Source: an uncultured Candidatus Saccharibacteria bacterium (GTDB taxonomy: Bacteria > Patescibacteriota > Minisyncoccia > Phycocordibacterales > UBA9973). From it: a stretch of 64,000 bases of DNA. The position numbers and the translations under genes were made by a program. This document shows, in pieces, positions 39,071-60,448 of the stretch (positions are counted from its first letter, which is position 1; each line of letters begins with the position of its first letter). Location: the NCBI GenBank assembly GCA_964553015.1, contig CAZKJE010000002.1:14175-78174 (forward strand). Reading direction: 5' to 3'. Below the pieces are notes generated by a model. It was not told the origin of the DNA and ran no database searches. It worked only from the letters and a program-made list of their open reading frames with translations.

Positions 39071-39145
39071 TTGATATTAGTAGCAAAATAGACTTATGAA
39101 ACTACAAGAAGGATAATAGCGTAACTAAACCATAAAGTCAATTTG

Positions 39146-39535
39146 TGGAGATGGGGGAAATTGAATCCCCGTGCAGAAGGTTTTTGCAAAGAAGTCTACA
39201 TGCGTAGCGCGCTTTTTGTTTTAAATTAAAAAATTATGAAACGCGCCAAATATTTTTTAACCGAGTTCTTTTGTTTTGCGAGAGCGTCAGAACAGGCGTT
39301 CAAGCTATCCCGATAATGTTATGCCTCGTCTTATATATCGGAAGTCTATAAGAGAGACACCACCTCAGGCTTACGCGAAAGATGGAGCGAAAGCGAGCGC
39401 ATTACCGAAGTAAGGCGAACGCATTGCTGTGAAAGCTGATTTTGCAATTAGCTGTTGAACGAATTTTTACGAGATTACGTTCATTCTCGGCATGCATCAA
39501 TAACAAATGGCCAACTGTCTATGCCTTGCATCCCC
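39146..39535 (-). ncRNA. ssrA: tmRNA (SsrA)
   Basis: The 5' GGGGATG pairs with the 3' CATCTCC, including the G3:U pair. T-arm GGGGA-TTCAATT-TCCCC, discriminator A, and CCA not encoded. Immediately downstream of smpB. The candidate tag frame ends ...GNALAFAPSFA-TAA, but the resume codon was not determined. Confidence 0.85.
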
Positions 39536-43323: not shown

Positions 43324-43998
43324 ATGGCGAGAAAACAAGATAAACAAAGCGTTTTGGCTATGCGCAAGAGAGGAATGAGCTACAGCCAGATCAAAGGGAA
43401 AATAAAAATAAGCAAAAGCACTTTGAGTGTCTGGCTTAAAGATTTACCACTCGATGAAAAACGGATAAGAGAATTAAGAGACAATAGCCCTATTCGTATT
43501 GAAAAATTCAGAAATACAATGCGAGCAAAAAAAGAGATGAGACTTTATGAGGTATATAAAAAAGTCGCAAATGATATTTGTGATCTCTCAAAAAGAGATT
43601 TATTTTTAACAGGCTTGTTCTTATATTGGGGAGAAGGCACGAAATCACAAAATTCTTTAGTTGCCCTCACAAATACAAATCCAGCCATGGTTAAGTTTTT
43701 CATACAATGGCTAAAATTGTTTGGAGTAAAAAGCAAAGATTTGAAAATTAAACTACATTTATACTCCGATATGAAAATTAAAGAAAGTCTTGATTTTTGG
43801 TCAAAAGAGCTTAATATTCCGATAAGCCAGTTTTATAAGCCGTATGTTAAGAAAAATACTCTCAAATCTATCTCGTATAAAAATGGCTTTGGAAAAGGAA
43901 CATGTAGTGTTATATTTGGGAGTAGAGATCTTTGGGAATATATAACAATGGGATTGAAATATATTTCTGAAATTAGTAATGAAAATTTCCGCCCCTAG
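43324..43998 (+). CDS. HTH plus LAGLIDADG-like (homing-endonuclease-like) protein
   Basis: 224 aa. N-terminal resolvase-type HTH (RGMSYSQIKGKIKISKSTLSVWLK). A single LAGLIDADG-like motif (LTGLFLYWGEGTK). The last 10 nt, including the TAG stop, lie inside the tRNA gene. Confidence 0.45.
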   Translation: MARKQDKQSVLAMRKRGMSYSQIKGKIKISKSTLSVWLKDLPLDEKRIRELRDNSPIRIEKFRNTMRAKKEMRLYEVYKKVANDICDLSKRDLFLTGLFLYWGEGTKSQNSLVALTNTNPAMVKFFIQWLKLFGVKSKDLKIKLHLYSDMKIKESLDFWSKELNIPISQFYKPYVKKNTLKSISYKNGFGKGTCSVIFGSRDLWEYITMGLKYISEISNENFRP

Positions 43999-44061
43999 CT
44001 CAGTTGGTAGAGCAATCCGCTTATACCGGATCGGTCCTTGGTTCGAGTCCAAGGGGGCGGA
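43989..44061 (+). tRNA. tRNA-Ile with anticodon UAU
   Basis: Cloverleaf read by hand: acceptor CCGCCCC/GGGGCGG, D-arm GCTC-AGTTGGTA-GAGC, anticodon arm ATCCG-CTTATAC-CGGAT, variable loop CGGTC, T-arm CTTGG-TTCGAGT-CCAAG, discriminator A. CCA is not encoded. Confidence 0.8.
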
Positions 44062-44063
44062 CA

Positions 44064-53486: not shown

Positions 53487-53544
53487 TAATTATCCCCCTT
53501 TTGTCTGGCTATTGTTTTCAATCCTGTTATTATTAAGGATAGTT

Positions 53545-55965
53545 ATGAATCTCCGGCAAAACTTGTCGATTTTATTTATTCTAGCTATTTTTTCGTTTCT
53601 AGTATTTTTAGGCAGTTTCCCTTCTCTGGTTTTTGCCACTGTGTATACAGGATCTACGGGTATTGTGTACTCAGATTTTGATGAGGTTGGGTTAGGGCCT
53701 CATGGCTTTAAGGATGTAATTGCGGAATGTCCTCCCGGCATTGGGGCAGTAAACTCTTTGAAAGATAATATTACTCTCGGCAGTGCTGCTTCCTGCAGCA
53801 ATTCGTATTTTTGGTTACAAAATAACATGGCCGTGAATGGTAACAATAACGACGAGCAGATTGCGGACGGGCATTACTGTATTTATGTAAATGGTGGAAA
53901 CCAGAGTGAATGTACGCATGGAGAATTTGATATAGTAAACGGTCTTCTTGTAGGTTCGCCTTGCTTAGAAAATTGTTTCTCAAATGTGCTTTTCTTGCCG
54001 GGGCTTGAATCAAGCCGTTTGTATACCCAAAGAACTGATGGCAGCGAAGACCAGCTCTGGGAGCCAAATGGCAATAGCGATGTTGAAGACATATATTTAA
54101 ATACAGACGGCACAAGCAAAAATCCTGATATTTACACACGAGATATTATTAAAGAAACAAATACGCCATTTCCATCAGGCTCTGCCGGCCAAAATATTTA
54201 TAAAAGCTTTTCCGACACTATGAATCAGCTTGTCGATGATTTTAAAATTGCGGACTGGCAACCTTACGCCTATGACTGGCGGCAAGATGTAAATGATATT
54301 GTGAATAACGGAACAAAATATCAGGATGGCAGTAAATCTCTCATTGAAACCCTGCAGTCGCTTGTCGATTCGTCAAAAAATGGAAAGGTGACAATAGTAG
54401 CTCACAGCAACGGCGGACTTTTAGCGAAAGCTCTGCTCAAAAAATTACAGAATGATAAAGCTGCCGGAATTAATAATTTAATTGATAGTGTAGATGTGTT
54501 GATTTTAGTCGCTGTTCCGGAAATAGGGACGGCAAAATCAGTGTCAGCAATACTGCATGGATACGATCAGCAAATATTGGGAGGTCTGCTCATGAATGAA
54601 ACTCATGTGCGCGAACTCGGCAGAAATATGAACGGAGCTTACGGACTTTTGCCAAGCCGGGAATATATAAATAGAGTGAGTGCGTCGCCGGCGACTTTCG
54701 TGGATACAGCGCTTCCTTCAAATGTCACAACTTCATTTGTGCAAAAATATGGGAATGTAATAGATTCGTATGCTGAATACAAAGATTTTCTCTTTGGCGC
54801 AGAAGGCAGGACAGATCCAGCGATAAGCCAAACAAATTTACCGATTAATTTATCTCAAAATTTATTTTCAAAAGCTGAAAATTTGCACGACAGCATAGAC
54901 AACTTTACTCCACCCACAAGCTTGCGAGTGATAGAAGTAGCCGGTTGGGGCTTGGACACGGTGGCGAGTTTTGAATACTATCCGAAAAAACAACAATGCG
55001 GGCAATTGATTTGTCCTTTCACTTTAGACGAAAGACCTCGTTTTACGTCGGATGGAGATAAAACTGTTGTGGTGCCGAGTGCACATTATATGAGCCTTGG
55101 CGGGGCGGAGAAATATTGGGTAAATCTTCCATTTTATAATGATGGATTAACGAAAAATAGAGAACATAAAGATATATTGGAAGTTGATCCAATTTTGAAT
55201 TTAATATCAAGTACAATTCAGAATTTGTCGTTAGATAATTCACCTTATTTATCTTCCGCGGCACCAACAGATTCTTCAAATCGTTTTCGAATTTCAATTC
55301 ACTCGCCCGTAACCATAGATGCATACGATGAAGAAGGAAATCACACCGGGAAAATTTGTCCTCAAAATTCTGACTTCTGTTATGCAGAAGAAAATATACT
55401 AAATAGCTCATATCTTGAATTCGGAGAAGGGAAGTACATTAATCTGCCAGAAGACCAAATGGCAAAAGTCATACTTCAGGGAACCGATATTGGAACTTTT
55501 ACCTATGAATCTGAAAAAGTTTTACCCGACGAAACATCAACCACTTCTTCCTTTATAGATATTCCAGTGACGACGCAGACACAAGGAGAAATAACGCTTG
55601 ATCAAGATGGTATGCCACAACTGGCATTAGACGTGACAGGAGATGGGGTTATTGATTTCAATATTTTACCAAATACTGCTTTTGACCCTGTTTTATATTT
55701 ACAGATCATGAAAACTACCATTGATTCCCTTGATTTAAACCAAGGCCAGATCAAAGCCTTTGATAATCGGGTTGATATCATAATTAAATCCATACAAGAA
55801 GGAAAATCTGACAACACTAAACTAAAAGCAGAGATATTCAAATCTGCTATTCAAAAGACATTATCTAAACCCGATTTGAAAACTCCAAAACCCAAAAAGT
55901 TATCTAAAACAGACGCACAATTATTGCTTGATATAATGAATAAATTATTAGATAATATTAGTTAA
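53545..55965 (+). CDS. Secreted alpha/beta-hydrolase (lipase/esterase-like) protein
   Basis: Start moved to ATG 53545, giving the signal peptide MNLRQNLSILFILAIFSFLVFLGSFPSLVFA. Nucleophile elbow VAHSNGG (GxSxG-type). Confidence 0.55.
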   Translation: MNLRQNLSILFILAIFSFLVFLGSFPSLVFATVYTGSTGIVYSDFDEVGLGPHGFKDVIAECPPGIGAVNSLKDNITLGSAASCSNSYFWLQNNMAVNGNNNDEQIADGHYCIYVNGGNQSECTHGEFDIVNGLLVGSPCLENCFSNVLFLPGLESSRLYTQRTDGSEDQLWEPNGNSDVEDIYLNTDGTSKNPDIYTRDIIKETNTPFPSGSAGQNIYKSFSDTMNQLVDDFKIADWQPYAYDWRQDVNDIVNNGTKYQDGSKSLIETLQSLVDSSKNGKVTIVAHSNGGLLAKALLKKLQNDKAAGINNLIDSVDVLILVAVPEIGTAKSVSAILHGYDQQILGGLLMNETHVRELGRNMNGAYGLLPSREYINRVSASPATFVDTALPSNVTTSFVQKYGNVIDSYAEYKDFLFGAEGRTDPAISQTNLPINLSQNLFSKAENLHDSIDNFTPPTSLRVIEVAGWGLDTVASFEYYPKKQQCGQLICPFTLDERPRFTSDGDKTVVVPSAHYMSLGGAEKYWVNLPFYNDGLTKNREHKDILEVDPILNLISSTIQNLSLDNSPYLSSAAPTDSSNRFRISIHSPVTIDAYDEEGNHTGKICPQNSDFCYAEENILNSSYLEFGEGKYINLPEDQMAKVILQGTDIGTFTYESEKVLPDETSTTSSFIDIPVTTQTQGEITLDQDGMPQLALDVTGDGVIDFNILPNTAFDPVLYLQIMKTTIDSLDLNQGQIKAFDNRVDIIIKSIQEGKSDNTKLKAEIFKSAIQKTLSKPDLKTPKPKKLSKTDAQLLLDIMNKLLDNIS

Positions 55966-56600: not shown

Positions 56601-56644
56601 TTTGGCAAGTACTTGACTTTGTTTATAGGTATATAATTATAGTG

Positions 56645-56920
56645 GAGTCAAATTGCACGCCTGAGTAGTTTGAAAGGAAATCCAAATGAGCTCTGAGTCA
56701 CGGTCACCCAATTTCCCAAGGCAGATGAAGCGGTATTGGTGGATGCGAAGGACACCACCGCCTCCATACCCCGTTCTCCGGCGCTTGCGCCTAGTGTTTC
56801 AGAACCACAACAGCGCAGTGTCACTTTCGGTCAAGGGAGTGATTCAGAGACATCTCGTGCGAGGCTAATCACTCCGCAGACCCGCGGGCACACCCGAGTG
56901 CCCGCTTCGTTTTTTCTTTT
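56645..56920 (+). ncRNA. GC-rich structured RNA or leader of unknown class upstream of ileS
   Basis: A non-coding stretch, visibly GC-richer than its flanks. It contains several strong local helices, for example GGAGTGATT/AATCACTCC and GGTGG/CCACC. It ends in the intrinsic terminator at 56884..56920. Confidence 0.3.
56884..56920 (+). terminator. Intrinsic terminator preceding the ileS promoter
   Basis: GCGGGCAC-ACCCGA-GTGCCCGC followed by TTCGTTTTTTCTTTT. Confidence 0.7.
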
Positions 56921-56947: not shown

Positions 56948-59900
56948 ATGCAGAAGCATGAAAACAATAACTCCAAATCAGAAGCAGCTTTGCGCGAAGA
57001 GCGAGTTTTGGAATTTTGGAAAGAAAATAAGATATTTAAAAAGTCGCTGGAGAAAAAATCCCCAAAGGGAGAATTTGTGTTTTATGATGGTCCAGTTACG
57101 GCAAACTCAAAGCCAGTTTTGCATACAATGCTACCTTTTTCTTTCAAAGATGTTATTCCCAGATATAAAACTATGCGCGGATATCATGTACGAAGGAAAG
57201 GCGGTTGGGATACGCATGGGCTTCCGGTAGAACTGCAAATAGAAAAAAAACTTGGGTTCAATTCAAAAGCAGATATTGAAAATTATGGTATTGCAGCTTT
57301 CAATAAATTATGTAAGGACAGTGTTTGGGAGTACGTTGGGGCATGGAAAAGTTTTACCGAACGAATGGGCTACTGGGCAGATCAAGATAATGCATATGTC
57401 ACATATTATAATAATTATATTGAATCTGTTTGGAATATAGTAAAAAAAATAAATGAGCAGAATCTGCTTTATAAAGATTACAAAGTGGTGCCGTGGTGCC
57501 CGAGGTGCGGTACAGCACTGTCTTCGCATGAGCTCGCACAGGGATACGAAGATGTAAAAGATCTGTCAGTGTATGTAAAGTTTAAGATAACTACGCCAGT
57601 GCAGGAAAATTCTGCCGCTTTACCCGCAAGCGGGCTCCGACACGGACAAAATTTTCCCGCATTGGCTCCGCAGTATATCCTCGCCTGGACGACGACGCCG
57701 TGGACCCTGCCCGGGAACGTTGCCTTAGCCGTCGGCGAAAATATTGATTATGTAAAGGTAAAGAGTGGAGAAGAGTTTTATATTCTCGCCAAAGAGAAGC
57801 TTTCAATCATAACCGAACCATATGAGATAGTGGAAGAGGTCAAGGGCGCGGGGCTAGTAGGGCTCGAATACGAGCCGTTGTATCCATATCTTGCAAATAC
57901 GGTTTCGGATACAGAAAAACCAAAATTAGAAAAGGCATACAAGGTGCACAAGGCAAACTTTGTGACCACAGATGACGGCACCGGCGTGGTGCATACGGCT
58001 GTGATGTATGGGCAAGATGACTTTATGCTCGGAACAGAAGTCGGCCTGCCGAAGCACCACCTCGTAGGTCTCGATGGCAAATTTTTAGCAGGCACAGGTA
58101 TTTTTGAAGGACGATTTGTAAAAGATGAAGAAGTCGCCGTAGATATCATTAAAGACTTGGCGCACCGCGGGCTTCTTTTCAAAAAAGAAAAATACGAGCA
58201 CTCGTATCCGCACTGCTGGCGCTGTAAAACTCCGCTCATATATTACGCGCGGGATTCTTGGTATATCCGGATGTCTGATCCTAGAATAAAAGCCGAAATG
58301 ATAAAGGAGAATAAAGAAATAAACTGGGAGCCGGAGCATATTCGCGACGGGCGGTTTGGGCAGTGGCTGGAAGAAATAAAAGACTGGGCAATATCCCGCG
58401 AACGGTACTGGGGCACGCCGCTGCCGGTCTGGGCCTGCGAAGCGTGTAAAAAAATTGAAGTAGTAGGAAGCGTAGAAGATCTAAAAAGTAGAACCAAAAA
58501 GTCTGGCAATAAATATTTTGTGATGCGGCACGGCGAGGCTGTCGATAACGCCAAGCATTTGGGTGATCCGAAAGGCGATCCAAATAATCACCTGACTGAT
58601 AAAGGGAAAAAAGAAATAATTCTTACCGCAGAAGAATTAAAAAATAAAAAAATTGATTTTATCTTTACGTCTTCTTTTCTGCGAACCAAAGAAACAGCAG
58701 AGGTCTTGAGAAAAGAACTAGGTTTGGAGCAAGAAAAAGTAATAGTTGAAGATAGATTGCATGAACACAATGAGGGAGACACTAAGCTCGTTCGCAAAAG
58801 GATGGCCGACTTTATTTATGAAATAGAAAAAAATTACGAAAATAAAAATATCTTAATAATTTCGCACGGAAATCCTATCTGGATCCTGCAGAAAACCGCT
58901 TTGGGCTTGTCTATAAATAATTTTACAGAAGGCGAGATGCTGCATACCGGCGAAGTCAAAGAATTAGATTTTATACCGCTACCGCATAATGAAAATTATG
59001 AGCTTGATCTGCACAAGCCTTATATAGATGAAATAAATCTTGTTTGTTCATGTGGTGGAAAATTAACACGCACGAAAGAAGTCATGGACGTGTGGTTTGA
59101 TTCGGGAGGCATGTCTTTTGCGCAGGATCATTACCCTTTCGATAACGCTTCCGGTAAATCTTTTGACGGCAAAGAACTTTTATATCCGGCGGATTTTATT
59201 TCAGAGGGCATAGATCAGACGCGCGGATGGTTTTACACCTTGCATGCTGTTGGAATTCTCTTGGGGCGGGGCAAGGCTTACAAAAACGTAATCTGCCTTG
59301 GCCATCTTCTCGACGCTAAGGGCAAAAAAATGTCCAAATCTCTCGGCAACGTCGTCGAGCCGTTTCTTGCGATGGATACATATGGCGTGGATACTTTGCG
59401 TTTGTGGATGTATTCCATAAATCAGCCGGGCGAATCCAAGAATTTTGATGAGAAAACAGTAGCGCTTCTTTCTCAGCAGATTTTTGGCTTGCTTTACAAT
59501 GTGCTTGCGTTTTATGAACTTTATCGCGATGTTTCGCTAGAGCCTAGAGCCTATGGCCTAAAGCCCAGCAATATTTTAGATAAATGGATCTTGGCGCGTC
59601 TAGATGAGTTGACAGAGCTTGCAACCAAAAATTTAGATAACTACAAATTGCTGGAGCCAGTGCGGGGCATGAGAGACTTTATCGGCGATCTTTCTACTTG
59701 GTATTTGCGCCGTTCGCGCGACAGGATAAAATCCTCCTCCGCACAAGGCTCCGGTGGAACAAGGGAAGGAGATGAAGCGAAGGAAACTCTGTACTATGTG
59801 CTAAAAACCTTGGCAAAACTCATGGCTCCGCTCGCGCCGTTTGCCGCTGAAGACATCTGGCTTAAGTTAAAAAATGAAGATGATGAAGAAAGCGTGCATT

Positions 59901-60448
59901 TGGCGAGCTGGCCGGAAGTAAAAAAGACATCTTTTATCTCCAAGTTGCTTAAAAATGATCCAAGCAAAAAAATAATTGAAAATATGGAGAGCGTCAGAAG
60001 AGTAGTCACACTCGGACTCGAAGCTCGACAGAAAACCGGAATAAAAGTCCGCCAGCCTCTTAATCAATTACGAATTAAAAATTACGAATTAGGAATTGAG
60101 TATGCAGACTTGATTAGAGAAGAGCTGAATGTCAGAGAAGTTATTTTTGATAATTCTATTGAAGGCGAGGTGTGGCTCGATATAAGAATAAACGAAGAGC
60201 TCAAAGCTGAAGGGGATTACAGGGAGTTTGTCCGCGCGCTGCAGGATATGAGAAAGAAAACCGGACTGACGCCGAGCGACGTGGTCTCTGTTACTTTTGA
60301 AACAAACAAAGCAGGCAAGGAACTTATTAAAAAATTCGAAGCTGAAATGAAAAAAACAGTGCTTGTCTCTACGATAGAATTTTCGGAAAATGAAGGAGAA
60401 AAAATAAAAATCGACAATCTTCACTTCAGGATAAAAATTGATAAATAA
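56948..60448 (+). CDS. ileS: Isoleucine--tRNA ligase with a nested histidine-phosphatase domain
   Basis: 1166 aa. IleRS hallmarks: WDTHGLPVE, editing-domain [10 protein letters not shown] and [13 protein letters not shown], KMSKS. An extra domain of about 163 aa lies at residues 522-684. Confidence 0.9.
   Translation: [1166 protein letters not shown]
58511..58999 (+). other. Histidine-phosphatase (PGAM-like) domain inserted within ileS
   Basis: Ordered motifs [43 protein letters not shown] and LIISHGNPI. Flanked by IleRS CxxC (ACEACKK) and CxC (VCSCGG) segments. Confidence 0.75.

Follow-up and report, generated by a model that had tools for sequence, protein, structure and literature searches.

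A VLHT form of the class I signature motif in type-2 isoleucyl-tRNA synthetases of Paceibacteria

Introduction

The HIGH motif (H-x-G-H after strand beta1) is one of the two motifs that define all class I aminoacyl-tRNA synthetases, and in isoleucyl-tRNA synthetase (IleRS) it was held to be near-immutable until 2023. What, then, is to be made of an ileS gene in which these positions read V-L-H-T? The gene in question occupies positions 56948-60448 (forward strand) of a 64,000-nucleotide stretch of DNA from an uncultured Candidatus Saccharibacteria bacterium (contig CAZKJE010000002.1), hereafter the window. An original prediction, made from the sequence alone, called the motif degenerate and offered two readings, namely, a lineage that tolerates an unusual class I signature or a functionally diverged paralog, the latter seeming more intriguing given the phosphatase domain nested in the same gene. 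Our analysis suggests that the gene probably encodes an ordinary housekeeping synthetase that carries a derived allele of the ATP-site signature, as part of an N-terminal module of single origin that was moved by recombination.

In adenylate formation, the histidines of the HIGH motif make contact with ATP and stabilise the transition state, and the glycine leaves space for adenine (as cited in PMC10485003). In type-2 IleRS (IleRS2), the motif is shifted, so that a histidine in the third position can stand in for the first one; in the G/AxHH variants, positions 1 and 3 are swapped, with N-epsilon2 of the third-position histidine lying where the first histidine of HxGH sits. The GxHH swap affects catalysis mildly, with a Ki for mupirocin up to about 1000-fold higher and in the mM range (Brkic et al. 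2023, PMC10485003).

An intact type-2 synthetase with VLHT in place of HIGH

The open reading frame (ORF) is intact over its 1166 codons. As a whole protein, it scores 868.9 bits against TIGR00392, the hidden Markov model for the IleRS equivalog (cutoff 621.4), and falls below the cutoffs of the ValRS and LeuRS models; Pfam detects tRNA-synt_1, Anticodon_1, a nested His_Phos_1 and, over residues 1043-1166, DUF5915. The top solved relatives are the structures of P. megaterium IleRS2, 8C8U, 8C8V and 8C8W (766-770 bits, with 8C8W as the top match in the PDB), followed by T. thermophilus IleRS 1ILE (727 bits), the yeast and human enzymes (525-563 bits) and IleRS1 (222-321 bits). The protein is a type-2 IleRS, nearer to the T. 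thermophilus and P. megaterium IleRS2 and to eukaryotic IleRS than to IleRS1, with a C-terminus of the DUF5915 type, and it shares with the canonical HxGH enzymes (1ILE, 8C8U and 8C8V) the fold, the domain order, the KMSKS motif, the editing site and the C-terminal type-2 domains. The plasmid-borne mupirocin-resistance enzymes MupA and MupB are likewise type-2 IleRS and highly similar, but the scores against their NCBIfam exception models (751.5 and 737 bits) are far under the cutoff of 1900, and, in contrast to these plasmid genes, the ileS analysed here is chromosomal and syntenic with housekeeping ileS.

The residues P56-V57-L58-H59-T60 are encoded at 57113-57127 (forward strand) by the codons CCA GTT TTG CAT ACA, just as originally described. 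In phmmer searches, residues 41-168 of the ORF align to 1ILE and to 8C8U, 8C8V and 8C8W without gaps over 127-128 residues, placing V-L-H-T on H-V-G-H of 1ILE and 8C8U and on G-V-H-H of the engineered 8C8W; the Thermus sequence given in the original prediction is correct. No gapped alignment that would bring back a canonical HxGH emerged from these searches, and a MAFFT alignment of 120 homologues holds the same register.

The other catalytic and editing motifs are intact, as the original prediction had already noted for KMSKS, the editing-site motifs and WFDSG. Across 47 homologues, the second class I signature, KMSKS (K794, M795, S796, K797 and S798; 59327-59341, forward strand), is invariant, and so are DVWFDSG, WDTHG and the editing motifs TTTPWT and GTGVVH, including T248-T253, G344, T345, G346, V348 and H349 of the CP1 editing domain. 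H59 (57122-57124, forward strand), the histidine retained in the third position, is at least 90% conserved in the same set.

VLHT is a discrete minority allele derived from G/AxHH

To place the motif among its relatives, we compiled two sets, the 120 nearest protein clusters by BLASTP (61-71% identical to the query) and the best 80 loci from GTDB species representatives. By source name, almost all of the 120 clusters come from Paceibacterota/Nomurabacteria, that is, from the candidate phyla radiation (CPR, or Patescibacteria), with one labelled Burkholderiales. GIHH is by far the most frequent motif (80 of the 120 clusters and 50 of the 80 loci), followed in the first set by VLHT (32 clusters, against 3 loci in the second) and in the second set by ALHH (19 loci, against 4 clusters); PLHS was found twice in each set and canonical HIGH once in each, GVHH once among the clusters, and AIHH and GLHH twice each among the loci, with one further locus matching no motif. 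A search with a 135-residue module added 7 further VLHT fragments, in which the block is the same apart from one minor variant, GPATANTPPVLHT; this search brought back short fragment proteins alone and is unsuited to a census.

Because G/AxHH forms dominate both censuses, the background state in this lineage is the non-canonical G/AxHH of Brkic et al. (PMC10485003), from which VLHT derives by one further step. The variant is thus not universal in related genes. To call the motif degenerate is also misleading, given that the catalytic histidine is kept in position 3, as in the GxHH enzymes.

The motif does not vary on its own. Columns 47, 50, 54, 57, 58, 60, 61, 63, 64 and 65 of a core block from D47 to S65 (57086-57142, forward strand) split VLHT from GIHH sequences nearly perfectly, and the complete series of class-separating columns comprises D47, V50, S54, V57, L58, T60, M61, P63, F64, S65, 98, 104, 109, 117, 120, 121, 132, K134, 135 and A144. 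All of these fall within residues 47-144, with none in the other half of the Rossmann fold or around KMSKS, and all are contained in an N-terminal Rossmann-fold module (residues 36-150; 57053-57397, forward strand) that, as described below, has its own phylogeny. Scored over 21 class positions, the sequences are bimodal (13-21 for VLHT, 0-6 for all others), without intermediates. The obligate core consists of D47, V50, S54, V57, L58, H59, T60, M61, P63, F64, S65, K134 and A144; V57 and T60 are invariant in all 32 VLHT clusters. K134 (57347-57349, forward strand) is invariant in VLHT and mostly Asn in GIHH, and adjoins W133, the equivalent of W130 of P. megaterium IleRS2, which is located in the vicinity of the HxGH motif (PMC10485003); A144 (57377-57379, forward strand) is invariant in VLHT and Val in GIHH. 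In one homologue, P0002, K134 and A144 are still tied to the core even though positions 98-121 are in the GIHH state, which argues for functional coupling. By contrast, the PLHS variants lack the VLHT-specific helix block, having kept R64 and carrying N or E at position 134.

Comparison of the window gene with five other VLHT genes gives ratios of nonsynonymous to synonymous differences (pN/pS) of 0.05-0.16 for the module and of 0.18-0.26 for the remainder. VLHT is a discrete, conserved allele under purifying selection, which supports the first of the two original options, a lineage that tolerates an unusual class I signature.

The module and the remaining protein differ in phylogeny

When the motif region is left out of a neighbour-joining tree, the VLHT sequences lie dispersed among the GIHH ones. 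Mapped onto the tree of the rest of the protein, the VLHT state requires 19 Fitch steps (bootstrap 17-23; about 28 with shuffled labels), although this tree is star-like, so that the number of switches is inflated by noise and about 3-4 of them are robust. On the tree of the module (residues 36-150), a single step suffices, and 4 steps are required when the 14 core columns are removed. Thus, the approximately 110-residue module is monophyletic, whereas the rest of the protein is not.

Even so, several pairs of close relatives from opposite classes are robust. Outside the module, locus L001 (VLHT) matches L002 (GIHH) at 89% identity and its best relative of the same class at 79%; for L084 (VLHT), the figures are 90% with L085 (GIHH) and 82% within the class. 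Between L001 and L002, synonymous divergence (pS) is 0.50-0.90 over residues 1-150, drops to 0.00-0.41, mostly below 0.2, over residues 151-875, rises to 0.98 over residues 876-937 and still amounts to 0.54 through residue 987, a mosaic that point mutation in situ cannot yield. A further statistic, the identity of third codon positions among VLHT modules (about 0.56, compared with about 0.47 in the rest), was set aside as confounded by the higher amino-acid identity. Given that the module and the remaining sequence have discordant phylogenies, and given the cross-class pairs and the L001/L002 mosaic, it is likely, though not proven, that a module of single origin spread among Paceibacteria ileS by homologous recombination; we propose that it is this movement that left both alleles in closely related backgrounds at one locus.

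Alternatively, VLHT could have arisen (or reverted) repeatedly by convergent point mutation from GIHH in situ, with no recombining cassette involved. The L084/L085 pair, in which pS of the module (0.68) is not above that of the rest (about 0.6), fits this scenario, as does the linkage of positions 134 and 144 to the core in P0002, which functional coupling predicts. However, convergence would have to produce at least 13 identical co-substitutions and leave no intermediates in about 240 sequences. It is further at odds with the near-monophyly of the module tree after removal of the core columns, and with the saturation of synonymous divergence around the module and residues 876-937 in L001/L002 against far lower values mostly elsewhere. 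We therefore regard repeated origin in situ as improbable.

VLHT genes share the locus of the GIHH ileS

The loci share the gene order SHMT-Tmk-dUTPase-ArgRS-(PIF1)-ileS-(HAD/MBL)-RecO-a gene of about 645 aa-class II aminoacyl-tRNA synthetase-M16 peptidase. It is found at VLHT loci (the window, L001, L083, L084, L086, which lies on an 813-kb contig, and L087) and at GIHH loci (L002 and L085) alike; the window itself has the arrangement ileS-HAD-MBL-RecO, and a PIF1 gene lies directly upstream of ileS in both L084 and L085. Because the locus and the neighbours on both sides are the same, the VLHT genes are orthologous by position to the GIHH housekeeping ileS and can be called its alleles. A tblastn search of the 64-kb window detected neither a second ileS nor an alternative N-terminal cassette, and each of the best 80 GTDB loci belongs to an assembly of its own, none of which gave two copies. 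Most probably, then, the VLHT gene is the sole housekeeping ileS of its genome.

Could the gene nevertheless be a diverged paralog or pseudo-synthetase with impaired adenylation, perhaps repurposed around the phosphatase, with another ileS in charge of housekeeping? Both classical catalytic histidines, in positions 1 and 4, are indeed gone, an unusual phosphatase domain is inserted in the gene, and the search for a second ileS covered the window and the best 80 GTDB loci rather than whole genomes. Against this stand the locus and flanks, which are shared with the GIHH ileS of sister lineages, and the confinement of class-specific changes to residues 47-144, with the KMSKS, editing, isoleucine-pocket and anticodon-domain motifs invariant. 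Purifying selection is stronger on the module than on the rest of the gene, no assembly occurs twice among the best 80 GTDB loci, and bacteria generally hold one IleRS type (PMC10485003). Finally, GIHH genes carry the phosphatase insertion too, and one VLHT gene does without it. The second option of the original prediction is thus unsupported, and a paralog of this kind appears highly improbable.

Little other than the metagenomic assembly of the contig and the oddity of the sequence itself speaks for an artefact of sequencing or assembly, a frameshift or a pseudogene in decay. These can be dismissed with near certainty because the VLHT codons vary synonymously over 7 loci (GTT/GTA, TTA/TTG/CTG, CAT/CAC and ACG/ACC/ACA) while the residues are kept, pN/pS is low, the ORF is whole, independent assemblies place one VLHT cluster on at least 39 contigs and the same block recurs in dozens of independent assemblies and studies.

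The nested phosphatase domain and other features of the window

A histidine-phosphatase domain of branch 1 (PF00300, His_Phos_1) is nested in ileS at 58496-58981 (forward strand; residues ~517-678), with a score of 83.4 bits against a gathering threshold of 21.7; its catalytic residues R527, H528, G529, R579, E606 and H640 are invariant in the 47 homologues. The insertion, of about 160 residues, sets this protein apart from canonical IleRS2, falling between residues 476 and 479 of the P. megaterium enzyme; in the CP region, Cys pairs flank it on either side, and it folds confidently in an AlphaFold2 model. Almost every one of the 120 nearest clusters has it, GIHH and VLHT alike, whereas the closest relative of the window gene, the VLHT homologue P0036 (locus L087), is without it. 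The same evidence leads us to reject a coupling between the insertion and VLHT, including the link between phosphatase and motif that had been suggested at the outset. Our literature search returned no paper that mentions a phosphatase domain nested in IleRS. Besides the phosphatase, an HD-domain extension (PF01966) is present in the IleRS2 homologues P0014, P0042 (L086, 10001-14086), P0060, P0068, P0090 and P0101, which reach 1300-1360 aa.

Upstream of ileS, a stretch of about 270 nucleotides (56640-56915, forward strand) has a GC content of 55%, compared with 42% for the window, and contains no credible ORF. It folds better than shuffled sequences (z -2.9) and is closed, about 35 nucleotides before the ileS start codon, by a terminator-like hairpin (GGGCAC-ACCCGA-GUGCCC) with a U-run. 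This stretch had no blastn match in 87 related loci, and a T-box or other known leader was rejected, with no match in Rfam even at E<=1; it may be a leader, an attenuator or a novel noncoding RNA. Farther upstream, at 53512-55965 (forward strand), an 817-aa protein that begins with a hydrophobic N-terminal segment and contains a lipase-like domain of the LCAT/alpha-beta-hydrolase type is encoded in place of the ArgRS that precedes ileS in most related loci.

The window also holds a tmRNA gene (39143-39535, reverse strand; Rfam RF00023, 119.6 bits) and a tRNA-Ile with the anticodon UAU (43989-44062, forward strand; ARAGORN, Rfam tRNA 65.7 bits). Since AUA is read in most bacteria by a CAU tRNA with a lysidine modification, the anticodon UAU on a tRNA-Ile is out of the ordinary, and the IleRS of the window would have to recognise this tRNA as a substrate.

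Discussion

Taken together, these results make it probable that the window gene is an ordinary housekeeping type-2 IleRS with a derived allele of the ATP-site signature, the module that contains it having a single origin and having been moved by recombination. Apart from the star-like shape of the rest-of-protein tree, several points weigh against this interpretation. A clear mosaic of synonymous sites is seen in one close pair only, L001/L002; in L084/L085, sliding-window pS is saturated throughout (0.4-0.7), leaving no readable signal of import. In P0002, P0005, P0039 and P0067, halves that are 100% identical are joined to halves just 50-85% identical, with three different N-terminal parts on one C-terminal 400 aa. 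These mosaics may be chimeric metagenome assemblies or very recent recombination within a population, and the pairs P0039/P0067 and P0002/P0005 were left out of the robust evidence for recombination, P0067 having no contig on record. The evidence on copy number spans the window and the best 80 GTDB loci, and a type 1 gene elsewhere in the genome is possible. Lastly, the AlphaFold2 model, which was built from the 47-sequence alignment, has a mean pLDDT (the model's per-residue confidence score) of 65.9 and drops below 50 in both halves of the Rossmann core (residues 47-93 and 712-833), so that contacts of H59, T60 and K134 with ATP cannot be read from it.

How might such an enzyme work? Purifying selection and positional orthology indirectly suggest that the VLHT enzyme still activates isoleucine with ATP. 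Under the scheme that we favour, H59 would take over the job of the imidazole of the first histidine, as in G/AxHH enzymes, V57 would fill the first position, by now non-catalytic, and the hydroxyl of T60 would stand in for the fourth imidazole. Remodelling appears to extend to the first part of helix alpha1 and to the helix next to it (V50, S54, M61, P63, R64 to F, S65, N134 to K and V144 to A), presumably in co-adaptation with the motif: V57, M61, P63 and F64 may repack the start of helix alpha1, and the loss of His60 and Arg64 may be offset by the new Lys134 beside W133.

The closest known counterparts are the G/AxHH IleRS2 (ALHH of D. radiodurans, S. griseus and the engineered GVHH of P. 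megaterium, 8C8W; PMC10485003), which are also type-2 enzymes with a histidine in position 3 and none in position 1. The window protein shares H59 with them but has neither Gly or Ala in position 1 nor His in position 4: where the published variants show only Gly or, rarely, Ala in the former and His in the latter, Val and Thr are found here, and VLHT is accompanied by about 10 further substitutions of helix alpha1, always the same, together with K134 and A144. Relative to canonical IleRS2, the Arg that is conserved seven residues past the first motif position in the T. thermophilus and P. megaterium enzymes is replaced by Phe. VLHT-type variants are mentioned neither by Brkic et al. (2023, PMC10485003) nor in a 2026 preprint from the same group, and a literature search for VLHT-like variants or CPR IleRS yielded nothing past [A/G]xHH.

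Other class I enzymes also depart from the signature. Bacterial TrpRS with TIGN (PMC10201369) is active with no histidine in positions 1 or 4, showing that class I enzymes do not universally need these two residues, although this enzyme belongs to subclass Ic, is dimeric and has Gly in position 3, with no third-position His. Within IleRS, HIGN, HVGN, HYGN, HYGS, HSGS and HHGS are present among 149 representatives clustered at 50% identity. The representatives that depart in this way are P0276, P0311, P0320, P0322, P0340, P0348, P0359, P0388 and P0354, which have HxGN or HxGS and so lack the fourth histidine, except for one with TIHH, and several of them show an RHG motif where the phosphatase insertion sits. 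As in VLHT, the fourth histidine of HxG[N/S] IleRS and of the Paceibacteria PLHS is replaced by a small polar residue; PLHS is also without the first histidine, whereas in HxG[N/S] the first His and the Gly are canonical. HxG[N/S], PLHS and TIGN support the view that the fourth histidine is dispensable, and the plasticity of the signature in IleRS appears to be broader than the published [A/G]xHH.

Following the example of GxHH, it is tempting to speculate that the channel between HIGH and KMSKS binds inhibitors of the mupirocin type still less well in VLHT enzymes. Mosaic target-site resistance genes, such as pbp2x and penA, spread by homologous recombination. In these genes, as in the case at hand, a block within an essential gene occurs in many backgrounds and has a phylogeny unlike that of the rest, but the evidence on VLHT comes from metagenome assemblies. 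The VLHT module could, in a bolder version of the proposed history, be a mobile, co-adapted target-site cassette that spreads as protection against a natural inhibitor, mupirocin-like or other, beyond that afforded by GxHH, and the enzyme the first natural IleRS to adenylate with one signature histidine, at the 'wrong' position; we consider this doubtful.

The existence of VLHT shows that one of the two defining motifs of class I synthetases can drift in nature beyond the G/AxHH swap, losing the fourth histidine and accepting a bulky residue in position 1, apparently only as a package with about 10 other substitutions, which amounts to a natural experiment on the contacts that the ATP site requires. 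VLHT is also a candidate source of still more inhibitor-insensitive IleRS scaffolds. In practical terms, annotation rules that require HxGH will mislabel such genes, several of which are already annotated as 'hypothetical protein' or 'class I tRNA ligase family protein'. For the CPR bacteria themselves, the mosaic distribution of the allele may point to an essential gene that is still under selection and still recombining. If the module were indeed a mobile resistance cassette, antibiotics would be selecting on an essential enzyme of translation in these ultra-small bacteria, which would then pass resistance blocks among themselves much like the pbp genes of pneumococci.

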